From contig JAUFOR010000006.1 in the NCBI GenBank assembly GCA_040285745.1, positions 186,001 through 250,000 on the forward strand: a stretch of DNA of 64,000 nt, given 5' to 3'. Shown one piece after another: positions 2,380 to 53,445 of this stretch (position 1 is its first letter; each line of letters begins with the position of its first letter). The notes below the pieces were generated by a model. That model was not told where the DNA came from and did no database searches. It saw nothing but the letters and a program-made list of their open reading frames with translations. The position numbers and the translations under genes were made by a program. Source of the stretch: Barthelona sp. PCE. Its lineage: Eukaryota.

Positions 2380-2618
2380 TAAATAAAAAGATAAAGAATA
2401 TATATGTGAATGCATTCATTCGGGTTAAAACTCATATTCCACGCATTTATTAACAACTAAGACATTGCCATGATCGCTGTATACCAGTGCCAAGATGAAA
2501 TCTCAACAAACATTAACTCTTCAAAAACAATCTAAAGTGAACCAGCTTCAAAAAACTTATAAGCTCTGTCGTTTCAGTATAAAGAACATTGTCTATAGCG
2601 CGACACAACTTATAAAAA

Positions 2619-3371
2619 TCATTTAGATGCCATCAGCATGAAATTGTTTTTAATCCACTCTATCATATCATAACAAGAAGCACCACCTACCTCATGTGCC
2701 ATTGTTTTTTCTACTAGACGATTTAAACATTGAAGAGTTACATTGGTTAATGATGGTTGACGCTTCCAACATTTTAATATGAACATTCCAATAGGACCAT
2801 AGAAATCACTGAATCTATCATCCTTCAATGTTAAGAAACTAGAAATAAAAATGACCAACTTTTCAAGATTCTGAAAATCATCTGCAAAGAATTCAAAAAA
2901 ATAATCTAACATTTCAACAAAATATATCATGAATGGTTCTATATGCTGCTCGTTCACTAGTCCATGACATATCAGATGTGATAATAACTCCAGCGTTTGG
3001 ACAAACACCTTCGAAAAATCATCTATAACTTTCCTCTCTTGCACCCACTTCAATGCAGTTTTCTCAACAATGACACTCATTAACTCATCCCTTCCTTTTG
3101 CAAAGTCAACAAAAGTGGGCCCACTGGCAAGATTGGTCAGAACCCATAAAAGATTTTCTTTGTGTTCACCAACAACCACGTCTGAGTCAAGCCAGCTCAC
3201 CAATCGCTCCAGAACCAGAGTGCTGGTGACAACATGGCTCTCGTTTTGCATCATGAACTTTCGTAATACCGCCAAAAGAGTTGTATCAGGGTGGTTCAAG
3301 TCCAGTATATACTCAAAAGGCGTTTGGACGGCGATATCGTCGTCCTCCCATTCGCGCTTTACGGTTGGCAT
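2619..3371 (-). CDS. Hypothetical helical protein, 250 aa; shorter, possibly truncated paralogue of 1123..2379
   Basis: Likely start MPTVKREW at 3371, preceded by T-rich TTTTCAC; shares motifs with the adjacent gene. Confidence 0.6.
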   Translation of the reverse strand: MPTVKREWEDDDIAVQTPFEYILDLNHPDTTLLAVLRKFMMQNESHVVTSTLVLERLVSWLDSDVVVGEHKENLLWVLTNLASGPTFVDFAKGRDELMSVIVEKTALKWVQERKVIDDFSKVFVQTLELLSHLICHGLVNEQHIEPFMIYFVEMLDYFFEFFADDFQNLEKLVIFISSFLTLKDDRFSDFYGPIGMFILKCWKRQPSLTNVTLQCLNRLVEKTMAHEVGGASCYDMIEWIKNNFMLMASK

Positions 3372-3783
3372 TGTGTGAATCAGGAAAATCTGATGATAAT
3401 TAGGCTGAAAATGTGAAAACAAAAGTTTTGGCGCGGTCCAGCGTCCAGTGACGTATGTAGTGGTGTTTACTGAATATTTAGCCATGGAGCACGTCCTAAA
3501 AGGCGGCTGCTGCGAGCCGTACCCACAACGTAGCAAAAAAGTGCCCCATAATCAAACCAATGCCCTCACGCGCCCAAAATTTTATGTGCCACGCGCCATG
3601 AGCCCTGCGAACCACATCAATAAAACTGTGAGGGGATAGAAATGCAAATGCTGTTCTGTTTCACATTTGCGCTTTCTGTTTCCGCTTCACATGTATAATA
3701 TCATCTTTATATGCCACGCACAAGCACTAATATTTAGTATATACATGCTATCTCAATTTTCACCTGCATCATCACGGCTATTC

Positions 3784-7522: not shown

Positions 7523-10500
7523 CTACTCGACCACATGCTTACCAAGCATAATTATTCTGTCGGGTTCGTCACAGAGATCCATCTGTTCACCCATAACATC
7601 TATGAAACCTATGGTATTAGGAGTGAATGAACAACCTGTATAAATGTTAATTGCATAAGGATTTTCTGACTCTTGAGGTAGACTCACATTGTGTGTTTTT
7701 GGAACACTAAAGATACAATTAGGTTTAACCAAAGGTACTGCATCAATATCAACCTTTGAAAGGTATAAATTGGGTGAACTGACCGTGTGAGCATTTTTAG
7801 GTGGATTAAGTTGTAGTTGACCATTATGTGACATGTAAACATTGTTGGGGACAGACAATCCACTAAAACTGGGAATAATAGAAGATTTCTTCCCAGAAAC
7901 ATTAAGGAATGGTCGTAATGACATGAAAGAACGTGTAGAATGCATGAAAAGAAGAGATAAAACAGCTTCACCCCTGTTCTCCATTTGACTGAAGGATAAC
8001 ATACCATGTTCAGCTGATAACTCTTTCTCTACACGACGTTCTAGCATATGACTAAGAATAGAACCGGGGAAGAACTGAGTATTCTTCGGATATAAATGCC
8101 AATAATTAAGCTCCTTTGGATACGAACAACCTGTTGCAAAGAACCAATCATCTTCAAACTGTAACAGACCCTTCGAAGCAACGATAGCACCAATGTACTT
8201 CATTAGGTATGCAGTATGGAACTCCAAATTCCTCTTGAGCATTGCCATAGCAAAAGATAAGAACGAACTGGGTTGTTGTAAACTATCTTGAGAAGCTACA
8301 AATTCATTCATAGCAAGCGCCATAGGCTTCACTGTCCTACCCGTCATCTGTCCAATGACACGCATGCCGTTCTCGACTGTCTTCTCAGAGTCACTGAAAC
8401 CAATGGTGAATAACTGATTCCCAATCACCTTTGATAACTTGCGTACGCCGCTGACGGTGTTGTAAACGTTCAGGAATGAAGGGGCACATGCACTCTGGGG
8501 CACACCATCTGGAGCATTAACACCAATAACACAGGAATAAGGAATTCCAAAAGTTCGCTGAAGCTTGGGGAATTGTTCCCTAACCTTTGGCAAATCGGTG
8601 GATGAAATGATAGGGCAGCCAGGTAAAAACTCATTAGCATCAGAATTGGCAATCTCAAACATCCTCATAATATAGAATGCTAAAGTTGAACCTACCTTTG
8701 CGCCAAAGTCCTCACCAATAACCTTAGAGTTATGTATAGCAAATGCCTTAACCCAACCAGGTGTGAAACGTTGTAGTCCAACGAATTCCATAATGTTACT
8801 GAACACAATAAAGACAAAAACGATATTTGCTTTTAATTTCTCAAAGTTATATGACATGATACCTATTAAATAAGAGAAGCATTGACCGATCCTCACCAAA
8901 TTCAACGGTACTTCACCAATAACAAGAGGTAGAACATCCAACCACAAAGCGTTGCTGAAAGAAACAATCGATCCAAAGTGTTGATCACTGTCTAACTCGA
9001 AATACATGAATGGACATTGATATTTTGACTGATAAACCTTCCACATGTTATTTGTTACTGCAAACATAACCCTTGACTGTGAATCATTGTAAGCTTCAGT
9101 ACCATATAGTTCATATATTTCATCAATAAGTTCCTCAAGACCATCACAACTGATGACAATCATAACAAAAATACCAGGTTTTAATCGAGCAAACAAATCT
9201 TCTTTGTTCTTCAAATGCGCTACACATAATGAAATGATGTGGAATTTTCCCATAGCCATAGGTACTAAGAATGCCCCATTGAATAGAGGATATTGAGTCA
9301 CATCATGAGAATCAGTATAAAGCATGATTCGCTTATTACCGAAAATTTCATCGTATCTTCGACTGAAATCCATCATTTGATGTGCTGCAGAAGAATTAAC
9401 GTGTAACGATTGTCCAGGTGTTGAAGCGTTGTCCATGAAACGAGATAACAATAATGGTAGAACAGCATAAGATACCGGACCATATAAATTAGTTAAGTAT
9501 GGCTTTAACACATGGAAGAAGAATACAAACTCCTCAATTGGATTCATAACGGTGAAGGTCATAGGCAGCTGTTGGAAGACAAACCGCAACTCCACCTCGT
9601 TATAAACTGAGGCATCCACCGATTCAAAGAAACGCACTACGCTATCATCAACCGAAATGTTGAGCTTGGAGAAGAGGACATCACTCAGAATCGTCTGAAC
9701 AAGCGTGATTGTCAAAGCTACGCGCAGTGAGTTGTGAGAGCTGTTGAGGGATGATGCTGCTGCTGATAATGACATGTAGTCTGATCTATCAAGAGTATCC
9801 CACAAAACTTTCGATTTCTGATGATATTGAAGTTGATACTGTAATGCATTGTGCAACATAGCAGCGAAACGTTGCTCTTTAGGTATCTTGAATGCAACCA
9901 TTGAAAAGTAATGCTTGAGAACTTCTAACAAGTTTTGGATTCGACTATTAGAACCAACAGGAGCGCTTGTAGCCATGGTGCAGATACGCTTACATGTGTT
10001 AACGTAACGGAAAGTGTCATCCTGTGTATGTACAGAAATGAAATCGTTGAACATAGCTACGCTCAAAGTATTAACCTTGTGACGAACACATACATCACGG
10101 GCGACGATCTTATAAGGGTTGAAGTAGCTTTCCACCTCCTCATATTGTTTCAAGTCCACAGCTGCAGAGAAAATGTTGTAAAGTTTATCAAACAACTTCA
10201 AACCATCATCAATCTCAACATCATCTGCTTGTTCTTCCAGTTCCATCTCATCAAGAACCTTACTGCATTGAATGAATTCATTAGTAGTTCGATTGTTAAA
10301 GTGACGAAGCTTATTGAAGAGTGTAACTTGTTCACTCTCAAAGAGGACATGCGCACATATATGTTCGAGAGAGGACTGAGGCAGCTGGCTGGACATAGGG
10401 AAGAAAGTGACATCCATGTAAGGAATGGAAGACAATAATCCTGCATTCTCTAAAACGACAGAAAGTCTAAATGTTGGGGGAATCAGCACCATTTGACCGT

Positions 10501-13500
10501 TTTTATCTGTGATAGAAGCCATGATACGCTTCTTCTTTGCTTGACCAAGTGTTTTAAGGAAAGTTTGCCAGTATCGAACTTGTTCTACATCCGAAATGGT
10601 AATAACATACATACAATCTTCGTTGTTGAAGACAGTCTGTGTAAAATCATCAATAGACTGCATATGCTGCAATTTCATGGAAGATATATCCTCGAAAACA
10701 TTGAAAAGGTGATCAGGACTGGGACAAAAGAGTGGTACGACTCCAACATCACAAAAACTACATAGGGCACCGATTTTAATGAAAACAATCTCGTCACAGA
10801 TAATGGGAACAGAATGATGACTCTTATAACGAAGATATTTTGTGATAAAAGGAACGAATTTCAAAAGCTCATTTGAAGCTAGTTTTCGATCAAACATAGT
10901 ATAATTATCCTTCTTAATGTACTCCGTGTACATGTTATCGTCCATAAGAGAAACAATGATAACATGGAAGATTGCCTGCATCTGTGCATAACAAACTTCT
11001 ACCTCCGTCATACCCACGTAGGGGAATTCCACTTTGAATCGTTCAAACACAGAGGTAAGCTTGGGTTTCATATCTACAATACGGGATAACTCCCTTTCGA
11101 CTTGTTCAAGTTTATCCTCGATTTCTACCAGTTCAAGTGAATTGGTCTGCATTGCTTCACGAGCCAAATCTGCATTCTTACTCATTTCCTCGAGTTCATC
11201 CATGGCTTCAATACTACATTCTAGTGCTTCTTCACCGGAAGAGCCTAAACAAGGATTATGTTGCTTCTGGATCTCCACAGATACAATTTTCTGTGCACAT
11301 TCCTGTATGACAATGTTCTTCTCCTCAATATCCCTCTTAAGCTGATCTCTGAGAACCTCAAAATGATCAATCTGTGATGTAATCAATGAACCCATCCTTT
11401 TCACCTTGTTGACCTTGGCACTGATATCAGCAATAATCTTACTCATCTCAATACCATTACGTGTTACAATCATAGCAGCTGAAAATCCAACACTTAACCC
11501 AATGCGTGAAAGAATATCACTGCGTGCATACTGTTCAACCTTGGGCATAACCTGTACTAAATCAAACTGCGCATTAAAATCACTGAAATGTAAGAAATGC
11601 GTTTTGAGATGGTCGAACAATGCTTCGTTCTCCTTCTCTCGTTTAGCACCTTCAACGCCGCGCATCTTCCTTGATAGCTCACGTAGTGTACTAACAGGAT
11701 CATCTCCTTTGAATATATCCGGAAATGGTGGAATTGTATCGTTCTGTTTAAGTGATATATGATCATTACTAAGGGCTGAACGAAGCCTGATCAATTCTTG
11801 GAAGACTAACGGGAAACTAGTATGGATATGCATTTGCTTCTCCTCATTTCTAATAACCTCATACATTCTCATGTACTCAGCTCTCTCTTCCTTAGCATAT
11901 GAATGTGATACTGTATCTGCTGTGATGACCTCTATGGGAACATCTGATGACAAATGTTGATTAATACTACCAACAACAATTCCTACAGTTGTTACGCGAT
12001 CAAACATTGCAATCTTACGCTGAACAAAATCACCAAACACTGTATCAGTCTCACATACAAAAACAATCTTAAATTGTCCTTTAATGTGCATTAATTCCAA
12101 TAAATCTGAGAGTACACGTTCTTTGTGGTTAATATACTCCACCTCTGAAAGAATTATAAGTGTAGGACAGTTGCTCGTGAGCATCTCCTTGTGTTTAAGC
12201 GCATCAGCAAATGCTATAGGTCTGTAATGAAGGAATTCAGCAAATTCGTAGCATTTTTCAAACTCAATATTGGGGAAAGTCAATCCATCAGCAATTACTG
12301 GATTAACGACAACTCTAACTACCTTATGAGGGTCACTGATAACAGAAAATGCCTGAAGGACTTGACAAACAGGAATTGTGAACTTCTTGGAATATTTCTT
12401 AACGAATGGTACGTTCCATGGAAGAAGCTGCATACAGAACTCATCACAGTCATCTTCTGTGAAGATACGTGTGCTATATTGCTTGGATTCGGTGTCGTAC
12501 AGGTCTATAGCGAATGTGTTTTTGCTGAAATCAATTCTAGACAGGGTGCTTAACGAACCAAGACCTGAAATGATTTCTTTGCGCTTATCTGGAGGGAGTA
12601 ATGTAAGCATTGGACGACAAGTAGAAACATAAAGCATGAACAATAACTTAAAATCTTCTAAATTAATGTTTAGTTTTTCCTCTCCACTCTTTTCCATCAG
12701 AATGACGCGGAAGCCACGGAAAAACGCCTTAATGGGTTCAAAAAAGAGCTTACTGCCATGGAAAGGTGATTCAGAAACAACAGCTGCAAGTAACTCAGAC
12801 ATTGCAGCCAGAGCACCAACAACTTTCTCTCTTGTTTCAACAGTGACACCATTGCGTTCAATAAGAATAACATCAGTTAATGTAGTGATGATGTCTGTAA
12901 TACGACCAGGATAAAAATTATTTAAAGACCATTTAAACGCAGTTCGATCAATGCTATTTTCACTAACTATGGATGGATGTTCATAGTATAGGAAGCCAAG
13001 ACCGACAGCACGGACATGTGCGGGGTTGAGACAGATACGACCAAAAAGACAACCGTGTAGGAACTCTTGGAGTTCTGGTTTAGCAATATTAATATTATCA
13101 AAAGTGAATATACCTAAATCTAGAGCAGAATTTTTGGGTTTAATAACATCAAAACGTGTAAAAACAGTTTCATTCAGAACAAGATCTCTCATGGCATCAT
13201 AAGAAATAGTTTCCACATCTACACGATTGGTAACACTGGAAAAATCAAACTCCTCAATAAAACTTGAAAATAGATTACCAAACCAGTTTGTCATTCCTAA
13301 ACCTTGATCACCAACGAGTTTAATGGTGATAGATCGATCAATCAATTGACTGGAAGAACCAACAAATGCAAAACCAATTATATGTTGATCAAATATAAAC
13401 GGTACATCAACTATGAAATCAAGATTGTAAGCCAAAGAACGATTATGAGTGTACATATTCTTCAATAAGACGCGAGCTGAACGCCATCCACCAGTAACCA

Positions 13501-16500
13501 AACAAGGAACATAATCATAAAGTTGATCTTCACTGAGAGTACTTCCCTTATACTCGAGATACTCTGCATCCATAATTTCAAGCAAATGACTGACAGCAAT
13601 ACCAATAGTATCCATACTTACACCGCTACAAGCACCCCAAATGAGTGCGAAAAGACATGCACGTTGAGACAGAGCAAGTACATTAGAACTGTTAAGGATT
13701 GATTTCCTATTCCAAAGTATTAAGATACCACCCAATATGTTGAGAGAGAATAACAGAGACTTGTGGGCGACCTGCGCCTCAGGGTCAGTATCTTTAACAA
13801 CTTTGACAAGTGAATCAAAATAACTTCCATAAAAAGTTCCAAAATGTTCAACAAAATCAAAATCTAGGAAAGAAAACATTTCATTACAACGGTTTCCAAA
13901 CTTCTCAATGATGCTATACGTATCAATTACAGTACTGGAGCATTTAACAACTGGATTACCGTATGAAGAGACTAAATCATGATCCATTGTTTCAACCACA
14001 ATAATCTCATCAACATCCATTTTCATTGGTTCGTTAAAATGTTCTAAAATATTATCAGTTTCAACAACATTAACCTTCATATGTGTAGTTAGATCACAGT
14101 GAACATCACTACTTTCTTTTTGTGCCTTACTAAACAAGTCATGATGAACAATAGCAACTGCATTTTTCTCTAAGAAAGTATAATGGATTGGTCGAGAAGC
14201 GTGACGTAAATGACAGTTTGGAGGTACATAAAAGACTCTAGCTTGTTGTTCGTTGGGTTCACAATGGAAAAATTTCATCGGAACGCGACTCAAAACCGTT
14301 TCTAATACTAAGGAAAGCGTTGTTTTTCCAGTGAAATTACCTCCAGTAATAACAGAACCTGAAAACAAAATACAACGTAGTATAAGACCACGGAAAACGC
14401 GCATGAAACTAGTTGTTGGTGTAAGATGTAACTCATTCAATACATCTAAACACACCTCATCAATCTGTACCATCAAGTGTTCTCTTCTCTCTGATACAGG
14501 AGCAAAGAATGTAGAAATGGGTTCAAGAATACTAAAGTCATCACAATAACTATCCTTACCGAACGCCTTCTGGATCATTTGCTTAAAGATTGTCATTTCA
14601 CTGGTTGGTTGTGCACCATCAAAGAATGGTTCACCACTATTCATCATCTTATCAATAACAGAAGGGGTATGTTTCTGTCCCTTAGAAGTTTTCTCCTTAG
14701 GCTGGATCTCGCGGATATCGAGGATAACAGTATCGTCAAGGGATGACTGTAAGTATACTGAAAGGACTTCACCAATCAATGATAATTCATGCAACATGAT
14801 AGGGTTATTAGAATTGAATGACAAATCTTCACGAATATAATGCTCAATATTCTTACTCATCTGAGGGTATTCAGTGTTTCTTAATAAAGTACAACAAACG
14901 TCAAAGATGACAATAATTTGATGCACATTTAGATAACTGGAAAAAGTTGAAGAAAACAGCTGAATAAACCAACTCACTATAATACCAACAGAACATGGAC
15001 ATACTAGACCTTGATGTCGGAGATAATTGACCACAAATCCATCTAAATCATAATCACCAAGCTTAATGTGCCAATAATAATCTTTATCAACAAACTGATT
15101 TGTCGTCATCACAATTGCACCATCATAGTTAGCATCAGTGGATACAGTCATGAGTGGAAGTTCTAATTGTTCTCTCTTAAGATAATGAGATGTTAAAAGA
15201 TATCTACTACACTCATCAAAAATGATTTGAGTTTCTTCAGGTAGGTCAACGTAGTTCTTAAGTATGAGTGTACAAGAAATTGAAGATGCACCAGCCATGA
15301 GGCGAGATATACCCTTGGGATTTATCGAACGACTCATTGATATTGTGTAACACTTACAACCAAGTAAATAAGAAGCAAATTCACAGTTTGATTCGCGACC
15401 CATGTTCGGTTGGCCCTGGTAGACAGCAACTCCTGCAATATTTGAATGATAGAATGGTAATTTAGTTACAAAATCAAGCATATTACGTGTTATTGCAAAA
15501 AATGAATGCATACGTTTGTTGACAGGCGTTTTAATAGCAAAATGATACTTCATTGGTGTGATAACACCAGTCAGAATATTAATACCGATGGAACCCGTCT
15601 CCTCATCTTTTGTAAGCTCAAATCGAGGAAAATGCTGCCAAATTGAATCTTCTACAGAACGTACTTGCTCAGCTTGCATAGCAATCACACAATCACGACA
15701 CATAACAATAGCGGTTAAACAGCATTGAAGTTTGAGGATCTGAGCATTCTGATGAGAATCATTTTTAAGTGTTCCAGCTACTGAATGGATCATACTCTGT
15801 AACCGTGATAGACAGTCTGTATACTCATTCTGCAATGTCTTTAGCAAAGATCGCAATTCAGCATGATGAGAGAAAGCTTGGTTCATACGTTGAGTGAAAT
15901 CAATCATGATAGAAACAAACACACTTTGCGAGGGATACTGATCTATCAAATCAACCAGACTCTTCAGATTAAAATTTTGACGGCATGTAAGAATAGAATT
16001 CTTAACAGCCATAGGAATATATTTTTCCAAAAACAAGTTACAGTGATGACATCGATCATCCGTAACGGCCATATCCAAAAGATCTGATACGGGATCCACC
16101 AGTGGGAATACCTCACCAGCTACGTTAACAACAGCTGTGATGTAATCTCCTTCAACTAATACACGTTGACAACCAGGTGCAATTGAATTTGCAACATCAT
16201 CCTTGATTATATCAGACAGACGAGCGCCTGGCATTGAGATGGCACCCATAAGGTCCAACAATTGAATGGGAGATACAAAGAATAGATGCGGTAATGTAGA
16301 ACAAATGTAGTTAAGATCAGATGATAATATATCTGCTAAATGTTCACATTCCTTCAACAAATTTGGTAAAATAAAATCACCGATTGGGTTAGGGACGAAA
16401 GATAATCCATCAAAATTAAGGAAAAACTTTAAAATCAAAAAATGTTCATTTTTTGACTTTGAATAGATAGACTCCCATGAATCTAAACGCTCAACAAGCG

Positions 16501-19500
16501 TATCGTAGACATGGGAGCTCACATGCAACACCTTGTTATCGACAGCGTATCTAATTAGATGTAATTTTTTGATCAACGATTGGGTTTGCTGGAGAACAGC
16601 AACAGACTGGTGGAAGAACTTCATCATATTAATCATAGTATCCACAATCTTCAGTGTACTGCTGCCAACGTCCTTACCAATTGCAACATGCTCTTGTGTA
16701 TCAGCGAGGATACGTAACTGAGAAAAAGAGTCATATCCGTCATCAGTTGCGATAACGATTGAGTGGTGGATTGTCGACATCTGCTCTTCGTTGAACATTG
16801 GGAGACCCAAGAACTCAGTTGTTTTGAATGTTGATGCTTGTAAACGATCTACAAAGGTAGAAACTGAATTGAAAACACGATCTTCTTCATTGAAGATGTC
16901 TAAAAGCTTGAACAGCTCCTTATGACGGTCAATTAGGTTAAGAGAGATCAAGTGCTGAACTGTGAATTGCAACTTACTATTACTTGTAATAACGTTGTTC
17001 ATCTCTGAGATGAACTCGGCGCTACCAAACTGTGCTACGATCTGAGAGAACTTATGTGATGTCAAATTGGTCTCCGATAGACGCTCGACTACCATCTGTA
17101 ACTCAAAGAAACGTTTTAGAGTAGTTGATATCAAAACAACAATTGGTGATTTCACCACAATCGGTGCTCTATCCCTTGTCAGGTTGTCAAGCTTGGCCTT
17201 AAAGCTCCTTGACTTTTCTTTGAGCGTGTTAAGATCGATGCTATCAACTGTCTCTAACAAGAAACCTTTCCAATGATCATTAGTTTCGTTGTAGAACGAA
17301 ATAACACTTTCAGCATAGGATATCTCTTCCTTAACCTGTTTAAAGCCTTCAGGGAAAGTAATGACTAAGTCATCAACAACAGTCTTTCCTGAAAGACACA
17401 CTTTCACATTTTCTTCTATTTCTCTCAACAAAACACCATATTCATTAGCTCTTCTGATTGTCTCCTCCGGTTCTAGATCAAGGGCAAACAATGCATTTGA
17501 TTCAAACATTGACATCAATCGAGTACTCTCCATGGAAATCGATTCTTTTAGTTGTGAAATCTTCTGAATGATGTCACTCTTGGCCTCAAGAATATTCTGC
17601 TGCAGGGCCTCCACCTGGTTCATTGCGCGGTCAAACATATCAGAAGCAACAAGCTTGAAGAATGCTTCTTGAACATCTTCAACGCGAGAAAGTGGAAAAA
17701 CGGCATATGCGTTTAACGTTGCCAAAATATCATCGTTATGGTGGAATTCGCTTGCCAACGACTTGAGTGTGTTTCTTGTTCCTCCAGAGAAGGAAGAAAA
17801 CATTGATGTTGAGGTGTTGCGTGTAAATGAAGTAAAGCCTGTAAGACCTGTTCGATCACTCCTCTTACTGCCCATAGAGAACCCAGTACCGCTCGTCAAA
17901 GCTGTGTAAACAGAACGATCATCATCATCGTTCTTTGCACTGAAGAATTGAGTGACTAAACCTCTACGCTTAGCGTCTTCAGCAGAGAAAGCCATGGACA
18001 TCATCTCACGCATCAGCTTGCGTACAGCATAACCACGGAAAACACGTTGAATGATAAGAGCAGCTGCATTCATTTCTTCATCGTTCCTCTTCTTCTTTCC
18101 TGGTAAATTAATAGACGGAACCCGTAAACCACTACGACCAGAGACTCCACTCATACCACTCACACCGGAATGGAAAGAATCCACGGAATTCATGGAAGCA
18201 AGACTTGAACGACGTGATATGGATCTGCTACCGGGATGAGAGGAAAGGAAACTTGCGTTGGTAGAACCACCACCCATTTCTTTTTTACGTTGAGATTTAA
18301 CAGACTTATAACGCTTTTGAACTGTTTCAGCAAAGAATTGTAATGGTCCAGAAACTTTATGAGCAGCAATTGCAGTTCTGAAATTAGGAAATAATTCAGC
18401 TGCGTAAAAGACACTTTCGTGACTCATTGAAGTATCGTAACGTTCGAGAAGAAGATATCCCTCTTCAACATCCTTAAGCTGCAAGTCAACATCAATACGT
18501 GCGTCAGAAGCCTTCTGAACAACATGCTGTAACTGATGGAAAGTGCTTAAATCACTCAAATCTGAATGAGCACTGGAAAGAATATCTTCACAACTTCTAA
18601 TAATAGTCTCCAAGACAAACACGCACTTCTTGCGCAAGAAAGAAGCAATCACATCAAACCAATGTGTAAGCTCTGTGTTGAGTGCGTTCTTCATTGCTAC
18701 TGTTTTTAAACAAACGGATTTAATATTGCCAAAAGTGATGAAATCAGGGATACTAAACAGCTTACTGCGTACATCTGCGAGACCATCGAATTGCTTCTCA
18801 AACTCTATTGATGAGATACTCTCCTTCTCCAGATAAGCAAGCTCTACCTCTGGCTGTTTGGTAATGATCCACTTAAAAGTATCCAAGAACGTCGAACAAC
18901 GTAACTGGATTGGATCACCTAACTTACGGAAGTAAGATTGAGTACGGAAAATTGGAATAAAAAGTTCTTTGTTAAGAACAGAATCAACGTCAAAGAATTG
19001 TGTAATGAATTGATTTTCCCTCAAACTAGAAAATACACGTTGCCACATACTGGAAATCTCCTTCTGGATGACAGCTAGACTTAAATTCGTTGTAATAGAA
19101 GGAATTTCAAGTTGCATACTGATGAAAAACAAAGGATTTTTCGAACTTTTGAAATCAGTGTAAAATTTGTTGAATGAGTAATGTATAATCTGTTTAAAGC
19201 ACAGATATAAATCTCTGAATAAAATGCTACAATGATCGTCTTGTTTCAAATCACTGATAGAAGAAGATGTTAAGCCAACAAAGCAAGCTAATTCATTCAA
19301 GACTTCCCCGGCTGATGTCAAGATAGCCTCAACAACCTTCATATTACTGCGAATATTTGTCTCAAAATATGAGATGAGATCTGAAAGACTTCTAACATTG
19401 GTCATGTGACGATTTTCCGAATCGTACATGCGACGCAGTGTGTTTTGGTGGGAACGACGGGTGGTGGCAGGGTTCAAACGTTGTGTAAGACGTGTGGCAG

Positions 19501-21943
19501 CATCCGTAACGTGTTGTTGTCTATCGTAAAAATTCTCCTCCTCAAAATTCTCTTGCTGCTGAGCATCATCGCAAACAATCTCATCAAGAAGGCAGACCTT
19601 GCCTAATCTCATGACAAGCATGGCAAAACGATCTAATAAATTATCTACGTTGATTCTGAGTAGGTCAAACTCCAAGAAATGGGTGTGTGCACTTGTCAAG
19701 AAACTCTCGATTGCACCCTCGTTATCCCAGTGGACGTTATCCAGACCAGTATGGAAGATGCTCTCTAACCTCACAATTGAACTGGATAAAAACGGAATAC
19801 TCACCTGTGAAAGTGATTGGATGAGTCTTTTACGTTGAGAAATGACCTCGTTCACACTATTAATGAAGCTGTACTTGAGTGATTGACCCTTGGGAGTTGA
19901 GCTATCAATGTTTTGGTCGACAAAACTTTCATCACGAAGCTTCAAAAGCACTGTATCATCAAGGTTGAGTGAGACGTTGCCACTAGCCTTGCGGCGGAGC
20001 AGACTTGATGAAAAAGCATGATTAGAAATTGAATCACCAGCTAATTTGGTTTGTATTGAAGTCTCCAATTTGATAATCTTCAATAATAATTGATTGTGAT
20101 AATCAATCAAGGTCTGAGCACTCTTCTGAGAAATGATACTCTTATCAACTAACATATTAAATACCTTCATTGGTTCTTCAATTTTTTGTGTTAAAACCTT
20201 ACAATACACAAACAATGTAGAATTCGGAGTACCATTACGAATCAATGAAGCATTCTTATACGTCAAATCACGATATAAATCACCAATACGATTTAGATTA
20301 CGTTGCAACGTAGCCTGGAAATTCAATCCAATCTCTGCGATAGCACGACGTATAGTTGGCCGAATACTTAATTCTAATAGGCTTTCAATGAATTTTCCTT
20401 GGAAAGTAAGTGCATTATCATCAAGTAATTGGAAATACCCATGAATTTTTTGTACCATTTGTGTCTCAACTTGTTTAACTTTGGTTTCAGTATCGGATAA
20501 TTCATCATCAAAATAACCTGTAACATCTTTGAACGGATCTAAATGACAATCATACAGAGGTGCTATGACTTCTTCTATGACATCAAAATTAAATAAAAAG
20601 CTTACAGGGATAGCTGTTTCGCTTTGAATAAGTGGTACATATACAAAAAAGAGTTGTAATTGTTCAACAAATGAGGCAAGTTTAGAGGCAAAAAAACTTA
20701 AATCTTCCAAGACATGTGTACTAGCATAAATAGATCTTAAACGATTATCAACTGCATCTAATAAAATTTGTCTAAAAACGTTCACAACACTAATAATATC
20801 AGTAGAATGATCTCTAAAACTTAATAATGTATCTTTCTGAAGTAAAAAACTAAATTTAAATTGATCATCTTCAGTGTTGAATAAAATCGTCTTGCAGATG
20901 TATAAAAATAGATTAATACCGGAACGTAAGAGATATGTTGTGTTGTCAGACAAACTATAAAACTTAGAGTTACGTATAACATTCAAAAGTGCATGGGCCA
21001 ATTCTCCTGAACTTCTAATATTAGCACGAAGTTCATCATGGTTCTTACATAAATTATACAAAGGTGTTATGTGCTTCAATGTATCTCTGATCAGCACATC
21101 GGTAGTTGATACCTTAGTTTCAAGAAACCTCCAATTACGAAGACTTGGTGACTTAGCAAGTGTTAACAGATTAACAGCAGCACGTAACATCGTTTCATTA
21201 CGCATAGTCTCAATAATCTGTTGGAAACGATTAGAGAAAGTAAACCAAACTCCGAATTCAAATTCAGGACCGATCTTTAGGTAAGATCCACGTGACTTCT
21301 GCAGTTCATTAAGTGAATCAAGTACAGGAACTAGTAATTCCATCCATTGGTTTAAAACACTCTCGCAATCAGCAACGCATTCAGCATTCTGTAAAGCAGA
21401 AGCTGGGTTACGCAATAGACGAGACCATTTCCTGTCTGGTTTAGGTAAAATAAAGCTTAAATCAATGTTGATTTCAAAAAGAAAATCGCTTAAACCTTTA
21501 TCTGATAATCTAGGTTGCATAAAAGGTCCGATAATACTCTTGAATATGTCTACAATGGTTACTGAGGCTGAAACACTAAACATACTTAAAGATTCCATTG
21601 ATTTTTCAGAGTCAAAAACTACTTGAGTAGTTCTGAAAAATATATACCGAAATGGATGATCTTCAAACGTTACAGGGAACTCTACTAATTTATCTCGTGT
21701 GCTAGGGATAAAGAAATTAATGTAATTCTTTGCATCTGAAGACAGATTACTGCTGTCCAGCATCCTAAAGAATTCCTGAGAAACTGTCATAACCATAAAC
21801 CCTGTAGATGAGTCGTGGACAAATCTGCTTAAAGAATCACTGAAATACTCTTCCAGACACCCAATAAGCTCTGGAATTATAAAACTTGTTACAGAACCGA
21901 TTTGAACGATTCTGTCCGCCAGGAAAGAAGCGAATGTCTCCAT
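7523..21943 (-). CDS. Highly divergent axonemal dynein heavy chain (outer-arm gamma/DNAH5-like tail), 4806 aa
   Basis: Size; DHC_N1-like GPEFEFGVW...LAKSPSLRNWR; linker LPHLFFVSPIQLLDLMG, YPSQSVF, WQHFPRF; AAA2 P-loop GGNFTGKTT; collinear but degenerate AAA1 and AAA3 motifs. Confidence 0.85.
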   Translation of the reverse strand: METFASFLADRIVQIGSVTSFIIPELIGCLEEYFSDSLSRFVHDSSTGFMVMTVSQEFFRMLDSSNLSSDAKNYINFFIPSTRDKLVEFPVTFEDHPFRYIFFRTTQVVFDSEKSMESLSMFSVSASVTIVDIFKSIIGPFMQPRLSDKGLSDFLFEINIDLSFILPKPDRKWSRLLRNPASALQNAECVADCESVLNQWMELLVPVLDSLNELQKSRGSYLKIGPEFEFGVWFTFSNRFQQIIETMRNETMLRAAVNLLTLAKSPSLRNWRFLETKVSTTDVLIRDTLKHITPLYNLCKNHDELRANIRSSGELAHALLNVIRNSKFYSLSDNTTYLLRSGINLFLYICKTILFNTEDDQFKFSFLLQKDTLLSFRDHSTDIISVVNVFRQILLDAVDNRLRSIYASTHVLEDLSFFASKLASFVEQLQLFFVYVPLIQSETAIPVSFLFNFDVIEEVIAPLYDCHLDPFKDVTGYFDDELSDTETKVKQVETQMVQKIHGYFQLLDDNALTFQGKFIESLLELSIRPTIRRAIAEIGLNFQATLQRNLNRIGDLYRDLTYKNASLIRNGTPNSTLFVYCKVLTQKIEEPMKVFNMLVDKSIISQKSAQTLIDYHNQLLLKIIKLETSIQTKLAGDSISNHAFSSSLLRRKASGNVSLNLDDTVLLKLRDESFVDQNIDSSTPKGQSLKYSFINSVNEVISQRKRLIQSLSQVSIPFLSSSIVRLESIFHTGLDNVHWDNEGAIESFLTSAHTHFLEFDLLRINVDNLLDRFAMLVMRLGKVCLLDEIVCDDAQQQENFEEENFYDRQQHVTDAATRLTQRLNPATTRRSHQNTLRRMYDSENRHMTNVRSLSDLISYFETNIRSNMKVVEAILTSAGEVLNELACFVGLTSSSISDLKQDDHCSILFRDLYLCFKQIIHYSFNKFYTDFKSSKNPLFFISMQLEIPSITTNLSLAVIQKEISSMWQRVFSSLRENQFITQFFDVDSVLNKELFIPIFRTQSYFRKLGDPIQLRCSTFLDTFKWIITKQPEVELAYLEKESISSIEFEKQFDGLADVRSKLFSIPDFITFGNIKSVCLKTVAMKNALNTELTHWFDVIASFLRKKCVFVLETIIRSCEDILSSAHSDLSDLSTFHQLQHVVQKASDARIDVDLQLKDVEEGYLLLERYDTSMSHESVFYAAELFPNFRTAIAAHKVSGPLQFFAETVQKRYKSVKSQRKKEMGGGSTNASFLSSHPGSRSISRRSSLASMNSVDSFHSGVSGMSGVSGRSGLRVPSINLPGKKKRNDEEMNAAALIIQRVFRGYAVRKLMREMMSMAFSAEDAKRRGLVTQFFSAKNDDDDRSVYTALTSGTGFSMGSKRSDRTGLTGFTSFTRNTSTSMFSSFSGGTRNTLKSLASEFHHNDDILATLNAYAVFPLSRVEDVQEAFFKLVASDMFDRAMNQVEALQQNILEAKSDIIQKISQLKESISMESTRLMSMFESNALFALDLEPEETIRRANEYGVLLREIEENVKVCLSGKTVVDDLVITFPEGFKQVKEEISYAESVISFYNETNDHWKGFLLETVDSIDLNTLKEKSRSFKAKLDNLTRDRAPIVVKSPIVVLISTTLKRFFELQMVVERLSETNLTSHKFSQIVAQFGSAEFISEMNNVITSNSKLQFTVQHLISLNLIDRHKELFKLLDIFNEEDRVFNSVSTFVDRLQASTFKTTEFLGLPMFNEEQMSTIHHSIVIATDDGYDSFSQLRILADTQEHVAIGKDVGSSTLKIVDTMINMMKFFHQSVAVLQQTQSLIKKLHLIRYAVDNKVLHVSSHVYDTLVERLDSWESIYSKSKNEHFLILKFFLNFDGLSFVPNPIGDFILPNLLKECEHLADILSSDLNYICSTLPHLFFVSPIQLLDLMGAISMPGARLSDIIKDDVANSIAPGCQRVLVEGDYITAVVNVAGEVFPLVDPVSDLLDMAVTDDRCHHCNLFLEKYIPMAVKNSILTCRQNFNLKSLVDLIDQYPSQSVFVSIMIDFTQRMNQAFSHHAELRSLLKTLQNEYTDCLSRLQSMIHSVAGTLKNDSHQNAQILKLQCCLTAIVMCRDCVIAMQAEQVRSVEDSIWQHFPRFELTKDEETGSIGINILTGVITPMKYHFAIKTPVNKRMHSFFAITRNMLDFVTKLPFYHSNIAGVAVYQGQPNMGRESNCEFASYLLGCKCYTISMSRSINPKGISRLMAGASSISCTLILKNYVDLPEETQIIFDECSRYLLTSHYLKREQLELPLMTVSTDANYDGAIVMTTNQFVDKDYYWHIKLGDYDLDGFVVNYLRHQGLVCPCSVGIIVSWFIQLFSSTFSSYLNVHQIIVIFDVCCTLLRNTEYPQMSKNIEHYIREDLSFNSNNPIMLHELSLIGEVLSVYLQSSLDDTVILDIREIQPKEKTSKGQKHTPSVIDKMMNSGEPFFDGAQPTSEMTIFKQMIQKAFGKDSYCDDFSILEPISTFFAPVSERREHLMVQIDEVCLDVLNELHLTPTTSFMRVFRGLILRCILFSGSVITGGNFTGKTTLSLVLETVLSRVPMKFFHCEPNEQQARVFYVPPNCHLRHASRPIHYTFLEKNAVAIVHHDLFSKAQKESSDVHCDLTTHMKVNVVETDNILEHFNEPMKMDVDEIIVVETMDHDLVSSYGNPVVKCSSTVIDTYSIIEKFGNRCNEMFSFLDFDFVEHFGTFYGSYFDSLVKVVKDTDPEAQVAHKSLLFSLNILGGILILWNRKSILNSSNVLALSQRACLFALIWGACSGVSMDTIGIAVSHLLEIMDAEYLEYKGSTLSEDQLYDYVPCLVTGGWRSARVLLKNMYTHNRSLAYNLDFIVDVPFIFDQHIIGFAFVGSSSQLIDRSITIKLVGDQGLGMTNWFGNLFSSFIEEFDFSSVTNRVDVETISYDAMRDLVLNETVFTRFDVIKPKNSALDLGIFTFDNINIAKPELQEFLHGCLFGRICLNPAHVRAVGLGFLYYEHPSIVSENSIDRTAFKWSLNNFYPGRITDIITTLTDVILIERNGVTVETREKVVGALAAMSELLAAVVSESPFHGSKLFFEPIKAFFRGFRVILMEKSGEEKLNINLEDFKLLFMLYVSTCRPMLTLLPPDKRKEIISGLGSLSTLSRIDFSKNTFAIDLYDTESKQYSTRIFTEDDCDEFCMQLLPWNVPFVKKYSKKFTIPVCQVLQAFSVISDPHKVVRVVVNPVIADGLTFPNIEFEKCYEFAEFLHYRPIAFADALKHKEMLTSNCPTLIILSEVEYINHKERVLSDLLELMHIKGQFKIVFVCETDTVFGDFVQRKIAMFDRVTTVGIVVGSINQHLSSDVPIEVITADTVSHSYAKEERAEYMRMYEVIRNEEKQMHIHTSFPLVFQELIRLRSALSNDHISLKQNDTIPPFPDIFKGDDPVSTLRELSRKMRGVEGAKREKENEALFDHLKTHFLHFSDFNAQFDLVQVMPKVEQYARSDILSRIGLSVGFSAAMIVTRNGIEMSKIIADISAKVNKVKRMGSLITSQIDHFEVLRDQLKRDIEEKNIVIQECAQKIVSVEIQKQHNPCLGSSGEEALECSIEAMDELEEMSKNADLAREAMQTNSLELVEIEDKLEQVERELSRIVDMKPKLTSVFERFKVEFPYVGMTEVEVCYAQMQAIFHVIIVSLMDDNMYTEYIKKDNYTMFDRKLASNELLKFVPFITKYLRYKSHHSVPIICDEIVFIKIGALCSFCDVGVVPLFCPSPDHLFNVFEDISSMKLQHMQSIDDFTQTVFNNEDCMYVITISDVEQVRYWQTFLKTLGQAKKKRIMASITDKNGQMVLIPPTFRLSVVLENAGLLSSIPYMDVTFFPMSSQLPQSSLEHICAHVLFESEQVTLFNKLRHFNNRTTNEFIQCSKVLDEMELEEQADDVEIDDGLKLFDKLYNIFSAAVDLKQYEEVESYFNPYKIVARDVCVRHKVNTLSVAMFNDFISVHTQDDTFRYVNTCKRICTMATSAPVGSNSRIQNLLEVLKHYFSMVAFKIPKEQRFAAMLHNALQYQLQYHQKSKVLWDTLDRSDYMSLSAAASSLNSSHNSLRVALTITLVQTILSDVLFSKLNISVDDSVVRFFESVDASVYNEVELRFVFQQLPMTFTVMNPIEEFVFFFHVLKPYLTNLYGPVSYAVLPLLLSRFMDNASTPGQSLHVNSSAAHQMMDFSRRYDEIFGNKRIMLYTDSHDVTQYPLFNGAFLVPMAMGKFHIISLCVAHLKNKEDLFARLKPGIFVMIVISCDGLEELIDEIYELYGTEAYNDSQSRVMFAVTNNMWKVYQSKYQCPFMYFELDSDQHFGSIVSFSNALWLDVLPLVIGEVPLNLVRIGQCFSYLIGIMSYNFEKLKANIVFVFIVFSNIMEFVGLQRFTPGWVKAFAIHNSKVIGEDFGAKVGSTLAFYIMRMFEIANSDANEFLPGCPIISSTDLPKVREQFPKLQRTFGIPYSCVIGVNAPDGVPQSACAPSFLNVYNTVSGVRKLSKVIGNQLFTIGFSDSEKTVENGMRVIGQMTGRTVKPMALAMNEFVASQDSLQQPSSFLSFAMAMLKRNLEFHTAYLMKYIGAIVASKGLLQFEDDWFFATGCSYPKELNYWHLYPKNTQFFPGSILSHMLERRVEKELSAEHGMLSFSQMENRGEAVLSLLFMHSTRSFMSLRPFLNVSGKKSSIIPSFSGLSVPNNVYMSHNGQLQLNPPKNAHTVSSPNLYLSKVDIDAVPLVKPNCIFSVPKTHNVSLPQESENPYAINIYTGCSFTPNTIGFIDVMGEQMDLCDEPDRIIMLGKHVVE

Positions 21944-22476: not shown

Positions 22477-23295
22477 ATGCATCCACCTGCAGAAAAACCG
22501 ATCATCCGTGCCACGAACGCCTCGTATGTTGTGGAGGATCTTGGAGCAGGATCAGGAAATCTTTTCATATCAAACATTCGTTTGGTGATTGATATTAAGA
22601 AAGGAGACCTTGCAAATCTCATCATTCCTCTGATTAATATTCAAAATCTTGAGCTAAAAACGCGATTGATGGGCCATACGTACATATTAGGTTCGTTCCT
22701 TTCACAAAACAAGAGCTATTACTTTAGAATCATGGTGAACCCTGGTGTTGAACAGATATACAACGTTATGAACGATGCTATTCTTGCTATTCGCCGTTAT
22801 TACACTCAACCAGCATATGTTCGTGTTCCAGTTCAAGCTCCTCAACCACAACCTGCTCAACAGATGAAACCTCCAGCTGAACAGGAAGTTAAGAAATCCA
22901 AGTCGCAGCAGCCTCAACAACCTCCTCAACATCAACATCAACAACAATATCAAGTTGTCCCTAATATGCAACCAATTGTGCACGAAAATGTTACGTATGT
23001 TCCTGTTGTGAGTTATATGCCGGTTCCCCAGCAGGGTATGCACCCTCAACCGCATCTTCAACAACCTCATACTCAACAACCTAAACATCATGGTATGCCA
23101 AAATTGAATATGCAAAAATTGAAGCAAGCAACGCAAAGAGTTATGCAGCATGTTAACCAACGATTTTCAACGCCCCAGGCACAGAATGTTGGTCGTGTAT
23201 TTGTTCATCCTCAACAACAGGTTAATCCTCAGCAAGGTCAACAGCGATACAGTGCTCCATCTTCAATTCCTGTTTATAACCCGGTTCGCAAGTAA
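22477..23295 (+). CDS. GRAM/PH-like domain protein with Q/P-rich tail (WBP2-like)
   Basis: GSGNLFISNIRLVI...IPLINIQNLEL fits a GRAM-type fold; low-complexity Q/P/H C-terminal half. Confidence 0.6.
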   Translation: MHPPAEKPIIRATNASYVVEDLGAGSGNLFISNIRLVIDIKKGDLANLIIPLINIQNLELKTRLMGHTYILGSFLSQNKSYYFRIMVNPGVEQIYNVMNDAILAIRRYYTQPAYVRVPVQAPQPQPAQQMKPPAEQEVKKSKSQQPQQPPQHQHQQQYQVVPNMQPIVHENVTYVPVVSYMPVPQQGMHPQPHLQQPHTQQPKHHGMPKLNMQKLKQATQRVMQHVNQRFSTPQAQNVGRVFVHPQQQVNPQQGQQRYSAPSSIPVYNPVRK

Positions 23296-47211: not shown

Positions 47212-47216
47212 TTTTT
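47212..47216 (+). terminator. RNA polymerase III terminator (T5)
   Basis: TTTTT immediately after the tRNA discriminator base. Confidence 0.7.
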
Positions 47217-49220: not shown

Positions 49221-49248
49221 AAAAAAGAAAATGTTTATTATATATACC

Positions 49249-53441: not shown

Positions 53442-53445
53442 CTTA

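Follow-up and report, generated by a model that had tools for sequence, protein, structure and literature searches.

Dynein heavy chains that are not motile are already known as a kind from animals and other protists; their recognition is recent (DNAHX in 2025, and DNHD1 through the genetics of infertility). DNAHX (sea-urchin XP_041462850 and its animal orthologues) is described as a non-motile chain that arose from outer-arm alpha (DNAH5/8) by duplication, in which the AAA1 motifs are not conserved, the function of the stalk and microtubule-binding domain (MTBD) is impaired, and insertions, one of them disordered and in the tail, make the protein longer than usual (Chai et al., 2025; 10.1101/2025.01.18.633724). 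By the same account, its motor remains recognisable, with a Walker B motif and bound ATP, and its MTBD is present but contains insertions; it is defined by an insert in the AAA4 small domain, its proposed role is that of a static member of a dynein complex, and it is reported in animals only, being absent from protists (10.1101/2025.01.18.633724). The Discussion of that paper gives the mammalian orphan heavy chain DNHD1 a poorly conserved AAA1 that is without the catalytic Walker B residues (10.1101/2025.01.18.633724), and the titles and abstracts of papers on DNHD1 place its function in flagellum formation. The survey of Kollmar (2016; PMC5100056) lists 75 unclassified heavy chains together with classes 10-17, with conserved tails and diverged motors, and infers an axonemal localisation of the orphans from their tails; as presented there, it is the motor domains of these orphans that identify them as bona fide homologues of dynein.

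Here we describe a gene of Barthelona sp. PCE that would extend this series. It occupies positions 7523..21943 of the (-) strand of the window (the whole 64,000-nucleotide stretch of contig JAUFOR010000006.1 that was analysed), and all the features discussed below are given in coordinates of that window and lie on the same strand. Our preferred reading, to which we assign a probability of about 0.68, is that it encodes a lineage-specific orphan heavy chain, duplicated from an outer-arm alpha/gamma-class (DNAH5/8-type) chain and now non-motile; it is best read as analogous to animal DNAHX and DNHD1 and to the orphan dyneins of Kollmar. The canonical outer-arm gamma/alpha chains with which it can be compared (human DNAH5 and DNAH8, P0004 of Percolomonas cosmopolitus, as it is named in UniRef, and the Chlamydomonas gamma chain, which we take to belong with them) have all the Pfam motor domains, an AAA1 with GPAGTGKT and an Asp-Glu Walker B, and a 320-residue stalk with an MTBD, and have no IQ insert. 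The Barthelona protein resembles DNAHX, as the latter is described, in its probable DNAH5/8 origin, its loss of AAA1 motifs, its affected stalk and MTBD, and its insertion on the tail side, but unlike DNAHX as so described it has no Pfam-recognisable motor, MTBD or Walker B, and its origin was probably independent. With DNHD1 it shares, by description, the character of an aberrant chain with a degraded AAA1, and nothing suggests common descent; DNHD1 is an animal family with orthologues, whereas none was found for the Barthelona protein in the collections searched. It also differs from the orphans of Kollmar, as those are described, in being invisible to a search by motor domain and in lacking an MTBD.

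The reading frame runs from an ATG through 4806 codons to a TAG stop, with introns unnecessary, and is the single entry in the list of open reading frames (at least 300 aa) between 7000 and 22500; the ATG is separated from the preceding stop by just four sense codons. It has no internal stops, compared with 187-523 in each of the other five frames. Its relative synonymous codon usage (RSCU) correlates with that of 22 neighbouring ORFs at r=0.93 (0.72-0.90 when six segments are compared separately with the neighbours), and its GC contents at the three codon positions are 0.464/0.334/0.341, those of the neighbouring ORFs being 0.469/0.349/0.347. The open frame and the neighbour-like codon usage and composition support the view that 7523..21943 is a real, maintained gene, so that both the uninterrupted 14.4-kb ORF and the intact state of the gene reported in a preliminary description of this DNA are upheld. 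A duplicated dynein gene might nevertheless be drifting neutrally and happen to be still unbroken, and the extreme divergence, the failure to find an ortholog in the collections searched and the depletion of tryptophan (0.5%, against 1.3-1.6% in canonical chains) could all be taken in that sense. We regard such a decaying relic as very improbable: divergence to the point of being undetectable by profiles, with not one stop in 4806 codons, is unexpected under neutrality, and position-specific GC and codon usage match those of the neighbouring genes in every segment. Internal repeats were not found when the protein was compared with itself by BLAST.

The tail of a dynein heavy chain is the region of heavy-chain dimerisation and of intermediate- and light-chain docking. 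In the Barthelona protein, it extends over aa 182-1177 (18413..21400), and comprises a DHC_N1 domain (aa 193-745) and a region aligning to the coiled coil of DNAH5 at 1162-1297; the preceding residues, aa 1-181 (21401..21943), lie outside every alignment, and homology was not detectable in them. When the tail was scanned alone, Pfam DHC_N1 scored 103.9 bits (E 1.1e-29, profile positions 4-559 of 562, cut-off 28.3). A Pfam scan of the entire 4806-aa protein gave no dynein family, but its omission of DHC_N1 is a false negative, as scans of segments recover the domain. A custom HMM built from 21 canonical dynein sequences gave the tail 148.1 bits.

Searched against the PDB, the tail matched DNAH5 (8j07_n0) at E 4.8e-15 and 6.1e-17, and at E<=10 the only matches were to DNAH5 and 9fqr_I3, a 4730-residue chain from the bovine sperm axoneme. 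A HMMER search with the tail among 1.84 billion representatives yielded 17 non-self matches (the highest-scoring reached 63.8 bits, with 23% identity); 15 of 16 library matches are 32-70% identical to DNAH5/8-type chains, and all eight of the tail matches submitted to Pfam contain DHC_N1, seven of them also having DYH2-5-8_CC. Canonical outer-arm chains are homologous to, and colinear with, the tail and linker of the Barthelona protein, at ~21-25% identity. Judged by the best matches of the tail, its nearest relatives therefore appear to be chains of the DNAH5/8 (outer-arm gamma) type, an assignment that these comparisons support and that agrees with the derivation first proposed for the gene. 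No ortholog was found in the collections searched, where the only matches were self-matches and the tails of canonical dyneins: a word-indexed search at full length, with 4111 candidates, returned the protein alone, none of 8000 shorter candidate proteins scored against the motor part reached E<=0.001, and none of 10 pattern matches among metagenome contigs was confirmed.

Between the tail and the linker, in the gap between domains 1 and 2 of the custom HMM, is an insert of 258 residues (aa 1178-1435; 17639..18412) that stands in for about 13 canonical profile columns, and is rich in serine (15.8%), arginine and glycine. It contains a putative IQ motif of the consensus form IQxxxRGxxxR (aa 1298-1308; 18020..18052), found both by Pfam IQ (E 0.0057; 16.8 bits, which is under the cut-off of 20.3) and by a strict regular expression that matches the protein only once and gives no match at the corresponding position of any of 21 canonical chains. 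The linker itself (aa 1436-2121; 15581..17638) was delimited by DHC_N2, the custom HMM and hhalign. Pfam DHC_N2 scored 29.1 bits (E 5.9e-7) over aa 1535-1727, under its cut-off of 31.9 and covering only the first 170 of 403 profile positions, and the second half of the linker (aa 1858-2121) scored 20.7 bits with the custom HMM. An hhalign alignment of aa 1811-2297 with canonical residues 1548-2082 crosses the boundary between linker and AAA1 at a probability of 85% (E 6e-6), and 13 of 13 profile slices taken from canonical positions 240 to 1919 match colinearly, with scores over those of the six controls. At the level of sequence comparison, the dynein homology is solid for the tail and well supported through the linker as far as the beginning of AAA1.

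Beyond the linker, recognition becomes difficult. The four motifs quoted in the preliminary description are all present where it had placed them, and its main contentions about them (that the catalytic residues of AAA1 have been lost, that AAA3 and AAA4 are without a lysine P-loop, and that AAA2 has kept its own) have stood up. The first of the AAA modules occupies the AAA1 position (aa 2134-2345; 14909..15544) and was recognised by reading of motifs, hhalign and block ranking; Pfam AAA_6 was not found in the motor segments at E<=10. Here the Walker A position reads GQPNMGRES (aa 2177-2185; 15389-15415), with arginine replacing lysine and glutamate replacing threonine, and the Walker B position ILKNYVD (aa 2227-2233; 15245-15265), with Lys-Asn replacing Asp-Glu. 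A 70-column AAA1 block has its best score exactly at the ungapped register (rank 1 of 4737, though not significant against shuffles), whereas hhalign favours a gapped one. The ungapped alignment is plausible, and in both registers the Lys/Thr of Walker A and the Asp-Glu of Walker B are absent.

The P-loop stretch at the AAA1 position also shows a resemblance to AAA4 that a simple decay of AAA1 would not predict, and that we leave unexplained. In profile comparisons, aa 2171-2210 match the AAA4 P-loop block best, with a score of 48.1, against -1.3 for the AAA1 block; the maxima in eight shuffles of this test were 31-35 (the highest 34.9), and in a canonical chain no module scores above 16.1 against the block of another. 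A second, weak block, which pairs aa 2306-2345 with canonical 3030-3069 at a score of 27.8, falls on nearly the same diagonal, and BLASTP and hhalign pick this out too. These observations raise the idea that AAA4-type sequence replaced the large subdomain at the AAA1 position, through conversion by, or recombination with, a paralogous module; the catalytic site would have been lost in that one event, and the remainder would have decayed afterwards. However, the strong signal covers just ~37 residues, the second block is not significant alone, the motif specific to AAA1 that precedes the P-loop continues to align to AAA1, and convergence on a generic P-loop/helix pattern could produce a similar result; we think such a replacement unlikely.

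A probable AAA2 module (aa 2443-2821; 13481..14617) was recognised by hhalign, block ranking and Pfam, each of these lines being weak when taken singly, as are those for AAA3. Its P-loop, GGNFTGKTT (aa 2534-2542; 14318-14344), is intact; hhalign aligns it with the canonical P-loop (E 0.0093, probability 4.4%), this site is ranked 1 of 4766 by the AAA2 block, and two HMM slices are colinear across the module at an offset of +347. The motif of the AAA1 small domain that precedes the P-loop is also colinear with the canonical arrangement, and Dynein_AAA_lid matches aa 2750-2821, as far from the P-loop as expected (E 0.0056; 17.2 bits, under the cut-off of 23.1). At AAA3 spacing there is a P-loop-like GDQGLGMT (aa 2878-2885; 13289..13312), recognised by reading of motifs, with methionine in place of lysine; at this register the AAA3 block ranks third, which alone is not significant. 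Across all 4806 residues the pattern G....GK[ST] is found a single time, at aa 2534, so there is no lysine P-loop of AAA3 or AAA4 type, and Pfam AAA_7 and AAA_8 were not found at E<=10 in seven motor segments.

The intact AAA2 P-loop and the maintenance of the entire length might suggest a working motor that has merely evolved fast, and that hydrolyses ATP elsewhere, for example at AAA2, or with an arginine in its P-loop. We consider this very unlikely. The AAA2 site of canonical dyneins is structural and non-hydrolytic, neither register of the first module contains the Lys/Thr of Walker A or an Asp-Glu, and the microtubule-binding domain appears to be absent. Conserved neighbouring genes, moreover, such as that for ALG3 (E 1e-122), make it clear that the genome overall is not hyper-divergent.

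A hairpin is predicted at the position of the stalk (aa 3477-3639; 11027..11515), on the basis of an AF2 model and a heptad scan. The single-sequence AF2 model has antiparallel helices at 3477-3561 and 3571-3639 joined by a turn of nine residues, with pLDDT 73-95 over about aa 3509-3629. The heptad scan gave one coiled-coil pair at this place, whereas in three canonical chains it gave CC1, a gap (~117 aa in P0004) and CC2; P0004 and P0028 have an extra coiled coil at the place expected for the strut. The start of the coiled coil fits the stalk position (offset +368, compared with +343 to +358 at AAA2/AAA3), and Pfam MT was not found in the motor segments at E<=10. On this modelling, the stalk is cut to a hairpin of ~160 residues without a microtubule-binding domain. 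Foldseek comparison of the hairpin model with the PDB gave nothing at E<=0.001; the top matches are helical hairpins of a generic kind, and although a dynein MTBD-truncation mutant ranks second among them (E 0.019), the comparison is not diagnostic.

The C-terminal residues, aa 3640-4806 (7526..11026), are presumed from position and length to correspond to AAA5, AAA6 and the C-terminal region, there being 1,167 residues past the stalk, compared with 1,130 in a canonical chain; their sequence is unrecognisable, and Pfam AAA_9, Dynein_heavy, AAA_lid_11 and Dynein_C were not found in three C-terminal segments at E<=10. For the ~2,600 post-linker residues as a whole, scanned in seven segments at E<=10, no Pfam motor model matched besides the sub-threshold Dynein_AAA_lid, and phmmer searches of the PDB with aa 1901-3300 and aa 1430-2860 did not find a dynein motor. 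The ESM Atlas is more suggestive: for two queries, the only named matches are dynein motor clusters, and the associated Pfam families are those of AAA1-4 for aa 2001-4000 and those of AAA4-6 for aa 2801-4806, the latter query sharing 203 of 256 features, at 0.91, with clusters having AAA_8/MT/AAA_9; the two scores, 0.89 and 0.91, are at lead level by the tool's own grading, with recognition values (2241 and 2083) below 2300. A dot plot contained 20 profile matches of at least 21, compared with 2-10 in five shuffles. Global alignment of the motor by hhalign was uninformative, giving trivial end overlaps for real and shuffled sequences alike.

Alternatively, the protein might be a chimera in which the tail and linker of a dynein have been joined to ~2,600 C-terminal residues of some origin other than a dynein motor, perhaps apart from generic P-loop modules. 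Curated and custom dynein profiles do fade directly past the linker, hhalign windows past aa 3000 give only non-colinear matches at probabilities of 1.3% or less, and the single-sequence AF2 model of aa 2121-3300 shows no fold (mean pLDDT 34.7, which makes it unusable for fold comparison). On the other hand, the alignment continues from the linker into the N-terminal motif of AAA1; the AAA1-small-domain motif, AAA2 P-loop and AAA2 lid are all colinear; the first module matches the dynein AAA4 P-loop block far above shuffles; segment lengths and the position of the stalk are canonical; and the ESM Atlas gives dynein motor clusters for both halves. The spacings between successive P-loops are 357 and 344 aa, against 282 and ~329 in a canonical chain (the AAA3 position there being read from the printed sequence). 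We consider a chimera decidedly unlikely. The dynein architecture originally attributed to the whole protein is confirmed for the tail and linker; for aa ~2350-4806, where the Pfam motor models are blank, it is inferred except at AAA2 and the stalk position.

Since its motor ring is now barely recognisable and the tip that would bind microtubules is apparently gone, the protein is most likely a non-motile, dynein-shaped scaffold. Under our preferred reading of an orphan heavy chain, an outer-arm alpha/gamma-class chain would have been duplicated, and one product converted into a non-motile protein. The C-terminal ~2,600 residues may retain the form of a dynein-like AAA ring, which a structural nucleotide at AAA2 perhaps holds together, and the protein would join a dynein complex, or occupy a docking site on the axoneme, by way of its tail; its head there might be static or serve as an adaptor with no motor role, as has been proposed for animal DNAHX. 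The IQ motif and the basic, serine-rich stretch at the junction of tail and linker might provide calmodulin-type and phosphorylation inputs. A more elaborate, and rather doubtful, proposal is that of an independent protist 'dynein-X', stripped of hydrolysis and microtubule binding (perhaps in one step, by an AAA4-type overwrite of the AAA1 core) and provided with a neck insert carrying a calmodulin-binding IQ and phospho-acceptor sites, which would act as a calcium-responsive non-motile arm, or as an assembly chaperone, plugged into dynein complexes by its tail.

If the orphan heavy chain is indeed non-motile, a protist case would imply that 'dead dyneins' arise repeatedly, and that a tail with a ring-shaped head can be useful without motor activity: here the docking tail and the lever would have been kept, catalysis and the microtubule-binding tip lost, and a calmodulin-type motif gained. 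In a genetically tractable, intron-poor organism, the role of such a head could be tested directly. The gene also serves as a warning that searches based on the motor domain would overlook genes of this kind.

Finally, we draw attention to three further points. The apparent loss of the MTBD, the 258-residue IQ insert and the AAA4-like P-loop at the AAA1 position had no place in the preliminary description; four neighbouring proteins whose sequence clusters were consulted each proved to be a nameless singleton; and one of the proteins encoded nearby is BBS5-like, at 27.3 bits, barely over the 23.8-bit cut-off of that model.

The focal gene (7523..21943 of the window, minus strand) is the sole ORF of at least 300 aa between positions 7000 and 22500. 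It runs for 4806 codons from an ATG, separated from the upstream stop by only four sense codons, to a TAG terminator, and has no internal stops, whereas each of the five remaining frames over this interval holds 187–523; the uninterrupted full-length ORF of the preliminary description, which had been made by a model from the sequence alone, was thus recovered. Codon usage correlates with that of 22 pooled neighbouring ORFs (r = 0.93), and does so in each of six segments of the gene (0.72–0.90; two shifted frames gave 0.51 and 0.79). GC at codon positions 1, 2 and 3 is 0.464/0.334/0.341, compared with 0.469/0.349/0.347 in the neighbours. The surrounding contig is gene-dense and eukaryotic, and conserved genes there read as single ORFs; one neighbour, ALG3, matches its own Pfam model at E = 1e-122, another is choline-transporter-like (Pfam match at 1e-53), and neighbouring ORFs use all three stop codons. 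Four proteins encoded nearby are singletons when clustered at 90% identity. The coding sequence is real and has been maintained; that it is a neutral relic is very improbable.

Scanned against Pfam in one piece, the 4806-aa protein matched none of the dynein families and gave nothing beyond an IQ match below threshold, but this proved to be a false negative. When the protein was rescanned as nine segments, the tail segment alone yielded DHC_N1 (103.9 bits, E = 1.1e-29, aa 193–745, profile 4–559 of 562, cut-off 28.3) and the linker segment DHC_N2 (29.1 bits, E = 5.9e-7, aa 1535–1727, profile 2–170 of 403), below its cut-off of 31.9. (In such an hmmscan set-up, strong domain matches can go missing from very long queries, as DHC_N1 did from the whole query.) A custom profile built from 21 full-length DNAH5/8-type outer-arm chains, whose coordinates we term canonical, matched aa 182–1177 at 148.1 bits and aa 1858–2121 at 20.7 bits, with a small colinear match at aa 1436–1590. 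Divided into 35 slices of 240 positions each, the same profile gave 13 of 13 colinear matches over canonical 240–1919, all exceeding six reversed or shuffled controls, and hhalign paired aa 1811–2297 with canonical 1548–2082 (probability 85%, E = 6e-6), an alignment that passes hallmark linker motifs and reaches the N-terminal part of AAA1. Judged by these profile comparisons, tail and linker are demonstrably dynein.

As to class, a PDB search with the whole protein found DNAH5 only (8j07_n0, E = 4.8e-15), and one with the tail alone found two chains only at E ≤ 10: DNAH5 and a 4730-residue chain of 9fqr, by its title the bovine sperm 96-nm repeat. (This chain, 9fqr_I3, is labelled 'Cilia and flagella associated protein 57' (CFAP57), a label that its length does not fit; it aligns to the dynein tail over residues 368–961 and is of heavy-chain length, so the label is probably mismatched.) When aa 160–1200 were run with full HMMER against 1.84 billion representatives, 17 proteins other than the query itself passed E ≤ 0.001, the top one at 63.8 bits and 23% identity. 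DHC_N1 was present in all eight of these that were scanned with Pfam, and the DYH2-5-8 coiled-coil family in seven; in BLAST of 16 against the DNAH5/8-type set, 15 gave 32–70% identity and one 23%. The PDB matches, together with the Pfam content and identities of the HMMER hits, support the outer-arm gamma (DNAH5/8) class proposed earlier, as an assignment from database matches. For the focal protein itself no ortholog was found, and it is an orphan in every collection searched.

Between tail and linker, aa 1178–1435 have about 13 profile columns as their counterpart. This insert contains 15.8% Ser, with basic-Ser runs, and holds a perfect IQxxxRGxxxR (aa 1298–1308; a Pfam IQ match below cut-off, E = 0.0057). 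At an equivalent place such a motif is absent from all 21 canonical chains, and the strict pattern occurs in one of them elsewhere, in the motor. In Chlamydomonas, the gamma chain has a calmodulin-like light chain as a binding partner.

The preliminary description had called the motor apparently dead, quoting four strings, all of which were located on the minus strand where it had placed them. Two belong to the first AAA module: GQPNMGRES (aa 2177–2185, window 15389–15415) and ILKNYVD (aa 2227–2233, window 15245–15265). Its ungapped AAA1 register, in which the Gly-Gly spacing of the P-loop, a Leu-Gly 18 residues on and the strand preceding Walker B agree, is plausible. Of 4737 positions, this one ranks first for a 70-column AAA1 block (−1.8; next position −16.2), at a value within the range of shuffle maxima (−8.3±5.1, highest 6.7), and hhalign picks a gapped register instead. 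A Lys-Thr/Ser Walker A and an Asp-Glu Walker B are absent in both registers, and the AAA1 catalytic site is gone, as had been claimed.

Unexpectedly, the P-loop/helix/strand stretch of this module (window 15296–15415, aa 2177–2216) fits the AAA4 consensus far better than AAA1. Scored as aa 2171–2210, it gives 48.1 with the canonical AAA4 P-loop block, equal to the best tail blocks and exceeding the global maxima of eight shuffles (31.2–34.9), compared with −1.3 for the AAA1 block; within a canonical chain, scoring one module against another gives at most 16.1. The strong stretch is about 37 residues long, and close to the same diagonal there is a second, weak block (aa 2306–2345 against canonical 3030–3069, score 27.8), picked also by BLASTP and hhalign. 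By position the module is AAA1: this numbering agrees with the AAA1 motif upstream of it, with AAA2 downstream and with the distance to the stalk. Either a decayed AAA1 has converged on the AAA4 pattern, or its core has been replaced by AAA4-type sequence; replacement as the inactivating event, compatible with the reading of a non-motile dynein preferred below, seems unlikely.

Of the dynein architecture reported earlier, tail and linker stand; the motor beyond them is much less visible. In seven motor segments no Pfam motor family appeared at E ≤ 10 except Dynein_AAA_lid (aa 2750–2821, E = 0.0056, 17.2 bits, below its cut-off of 23.1), and phmmer against PDB found no dynein for aa 1901–3300 or aa 1430–2860. 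Among 15 hhalign windows of 400 residues, 1801–2200 was the sole significant one; three within 2201–3000 were colinear at probabilities of 0.8–3.5%, window 2001–2400 preferred AAA4, and all ten beyond aa 2800 were non-colinear. Such results are what a chimera, with the tail and linker joined to a non-dynein C-terminus, might give, and we consider it improbable. Several weaker observations agree with a colinear, decayed motor.

The pattern G....GK[ST] occurs once in all 4806 aa, at 2534, within GGNFTGKTT (aa 2534–2542, window 14318–14344), in keeping with the earlier view that only AAA2 keeps its P-loop; the fourth string, GDQGLGMT, lies at aa 2878–2885 (window 13289–13312). The best local hhalign alignment of AAA2 (aa 2443–2758 with canonical 2110–2458, E = 0.0093, probability 4.4%) pairs the P-loops and also the conserved motif ending the AAA1 small domain. 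An ungapped 41-column AAA2 block scores best exactly at this P-loop (rank 1 of 4766; 16.6 against maxima of 4.4±4.0, highest 17.3, in 30 shuffles), and two profile slices match the region at an offset of +347. The lid match sits 216–287 residues past the P-loop, compared with a canonical estimate, from domain coordinates, of about 220–279. P-loop-like motifs are spaced by 357 and 344 residues (canonical 282 and about 329, the latter with the AAA3 position read from the sequence), and the offset from canonical is +343 at the AAA2 P-loop, +358 at that of AAA3 and +368 at the start of CC1, the first stalk coiled-coil strand; 1,167 residues follow the coiled coil, compared with 1,130 in a canonical chain. 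By ESM Atlas language-model features, the nearest clusters to aa 2001–4000 are dynein clusters with AAA_5/AAA_6/AAA_7/AAA_8 (top 0.89, 192/256 shared), and those to aa 2801–4806 carry AAA_8/MT/AAA_9/Dynein_heavy (0.91, 203/256), scores that the tool grades as leads, with both recognition values below 2300. A profile-sequence dot plot of aa 2101–4806 against the canonical motor gave 20 matches with scores of at least 21 (2–10 in five shuffles), about five of them coil-on-coil and most others off the main diagonal.

The stalk adds a loss that the preliminary description missed. A crude heptad scan of the whole motor found one coiled-coil pair (aa 3489–3530 and 3581–3636). Three canonical chains showed CC1, a gap and CC2 (the second strand) as expected, and P0004, the chain of Percolomonas cosmopolitus by its UniRef name, and P0028, another canonical chain, have a further coiled coil at the expected strut position; in P0004, a CC1 of about 120 residues is separated by a gap of about 117 from a CC2 of about 80. 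Single-sequence AF2 of aa 3430–3700 folds helices 3477–3561 and 3571–3639 into a hairpin with a nine-residue connection (pLDDT 73–95 over roughly aa 3509–3629; whole-model mean 63). Foldseek with this model returned generic helical hairpins only, nothing at E ≤ 0.001. The stalk region is about 170 residues below canonical length, the size of the microtubule-binding domain plus some coil. The loss of that domain strengthens a non-motile reading; an aberrant motor that is still active, for which the retained AAA2 P-loop might be invoked, would have to work with neither this domain nor an AAA1 site, and is most improbable.

It thus seems likely, with a probability of roughly two in three, that the protein is a lineage-specific, non-motile dynein heavy chain; the earlier observation is confirmed, and its interpretation was largely right, on incomplete evidence. 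Through its tail the protein would join dynein assemblies, and its ring would be decayed and perhaps kept stable by a nucleotide bound at AAA2.

In the account of a recent preprint (10.1101/2025.01.18.633724), DNAHX, which arose by duplication of the outer-arm alpha chain, is confined to animals and absent from protists; it has non-conserved AAA1 motifs, impaired stalk and microtubule-binding function and many insertions, and is proposed as a non-motile partner in phi-like complexes; DNHD1 is there described as without catalytic Walker B residues. Kollmar (2016; PMC5100056) reported 75 orphan dyneins and eight new classes, and argues that the orphans are functional and axonemal. As portrayed there, they are of the same kind as the focal protein, which is more extreme in having a motor invisible to curated profiles, no microtubule-binding domain and an IQ insert. 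P0015 (4699 aa), a divergent heavy chain of DNAH5/8 type found in another record, is possibly a further dynein in partial decay: at AAA1 its Walker B is FHEIDS, with His in place of Asp, and a P-loop pattern search finds no AAA4-type P-loop.

Finally, we draw attention to other features of the window. The divergent neighbour at 22477–23295 (plus strand, 272 aa) matches the second half only of Pfam BBS5 with a low score (27.3 bits, cut-off 23.8) and ends in a Gln/Pro-rich tail; it resembles a protein with a PH/GRAM-like domain more than a genuine BBS5, and so provides no evidence for cilia. A giant surface protein is the probable product of a 3194-aa ORF at 26881–36465 (plus strand), in which IPT/TIG repeats (216 bits) and one ephrin-receptor-like repeat were recognised. 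At E ≤ 1e-5, 11 of the 22 neighbouring ORFs of at least 150 aa match no Pfam family, among them a consecutive run of six (44742–56457), and a single tRNA-Asp (GTC) gene at 47140–47211 (plus strand) is the sole Rfam match in the window.
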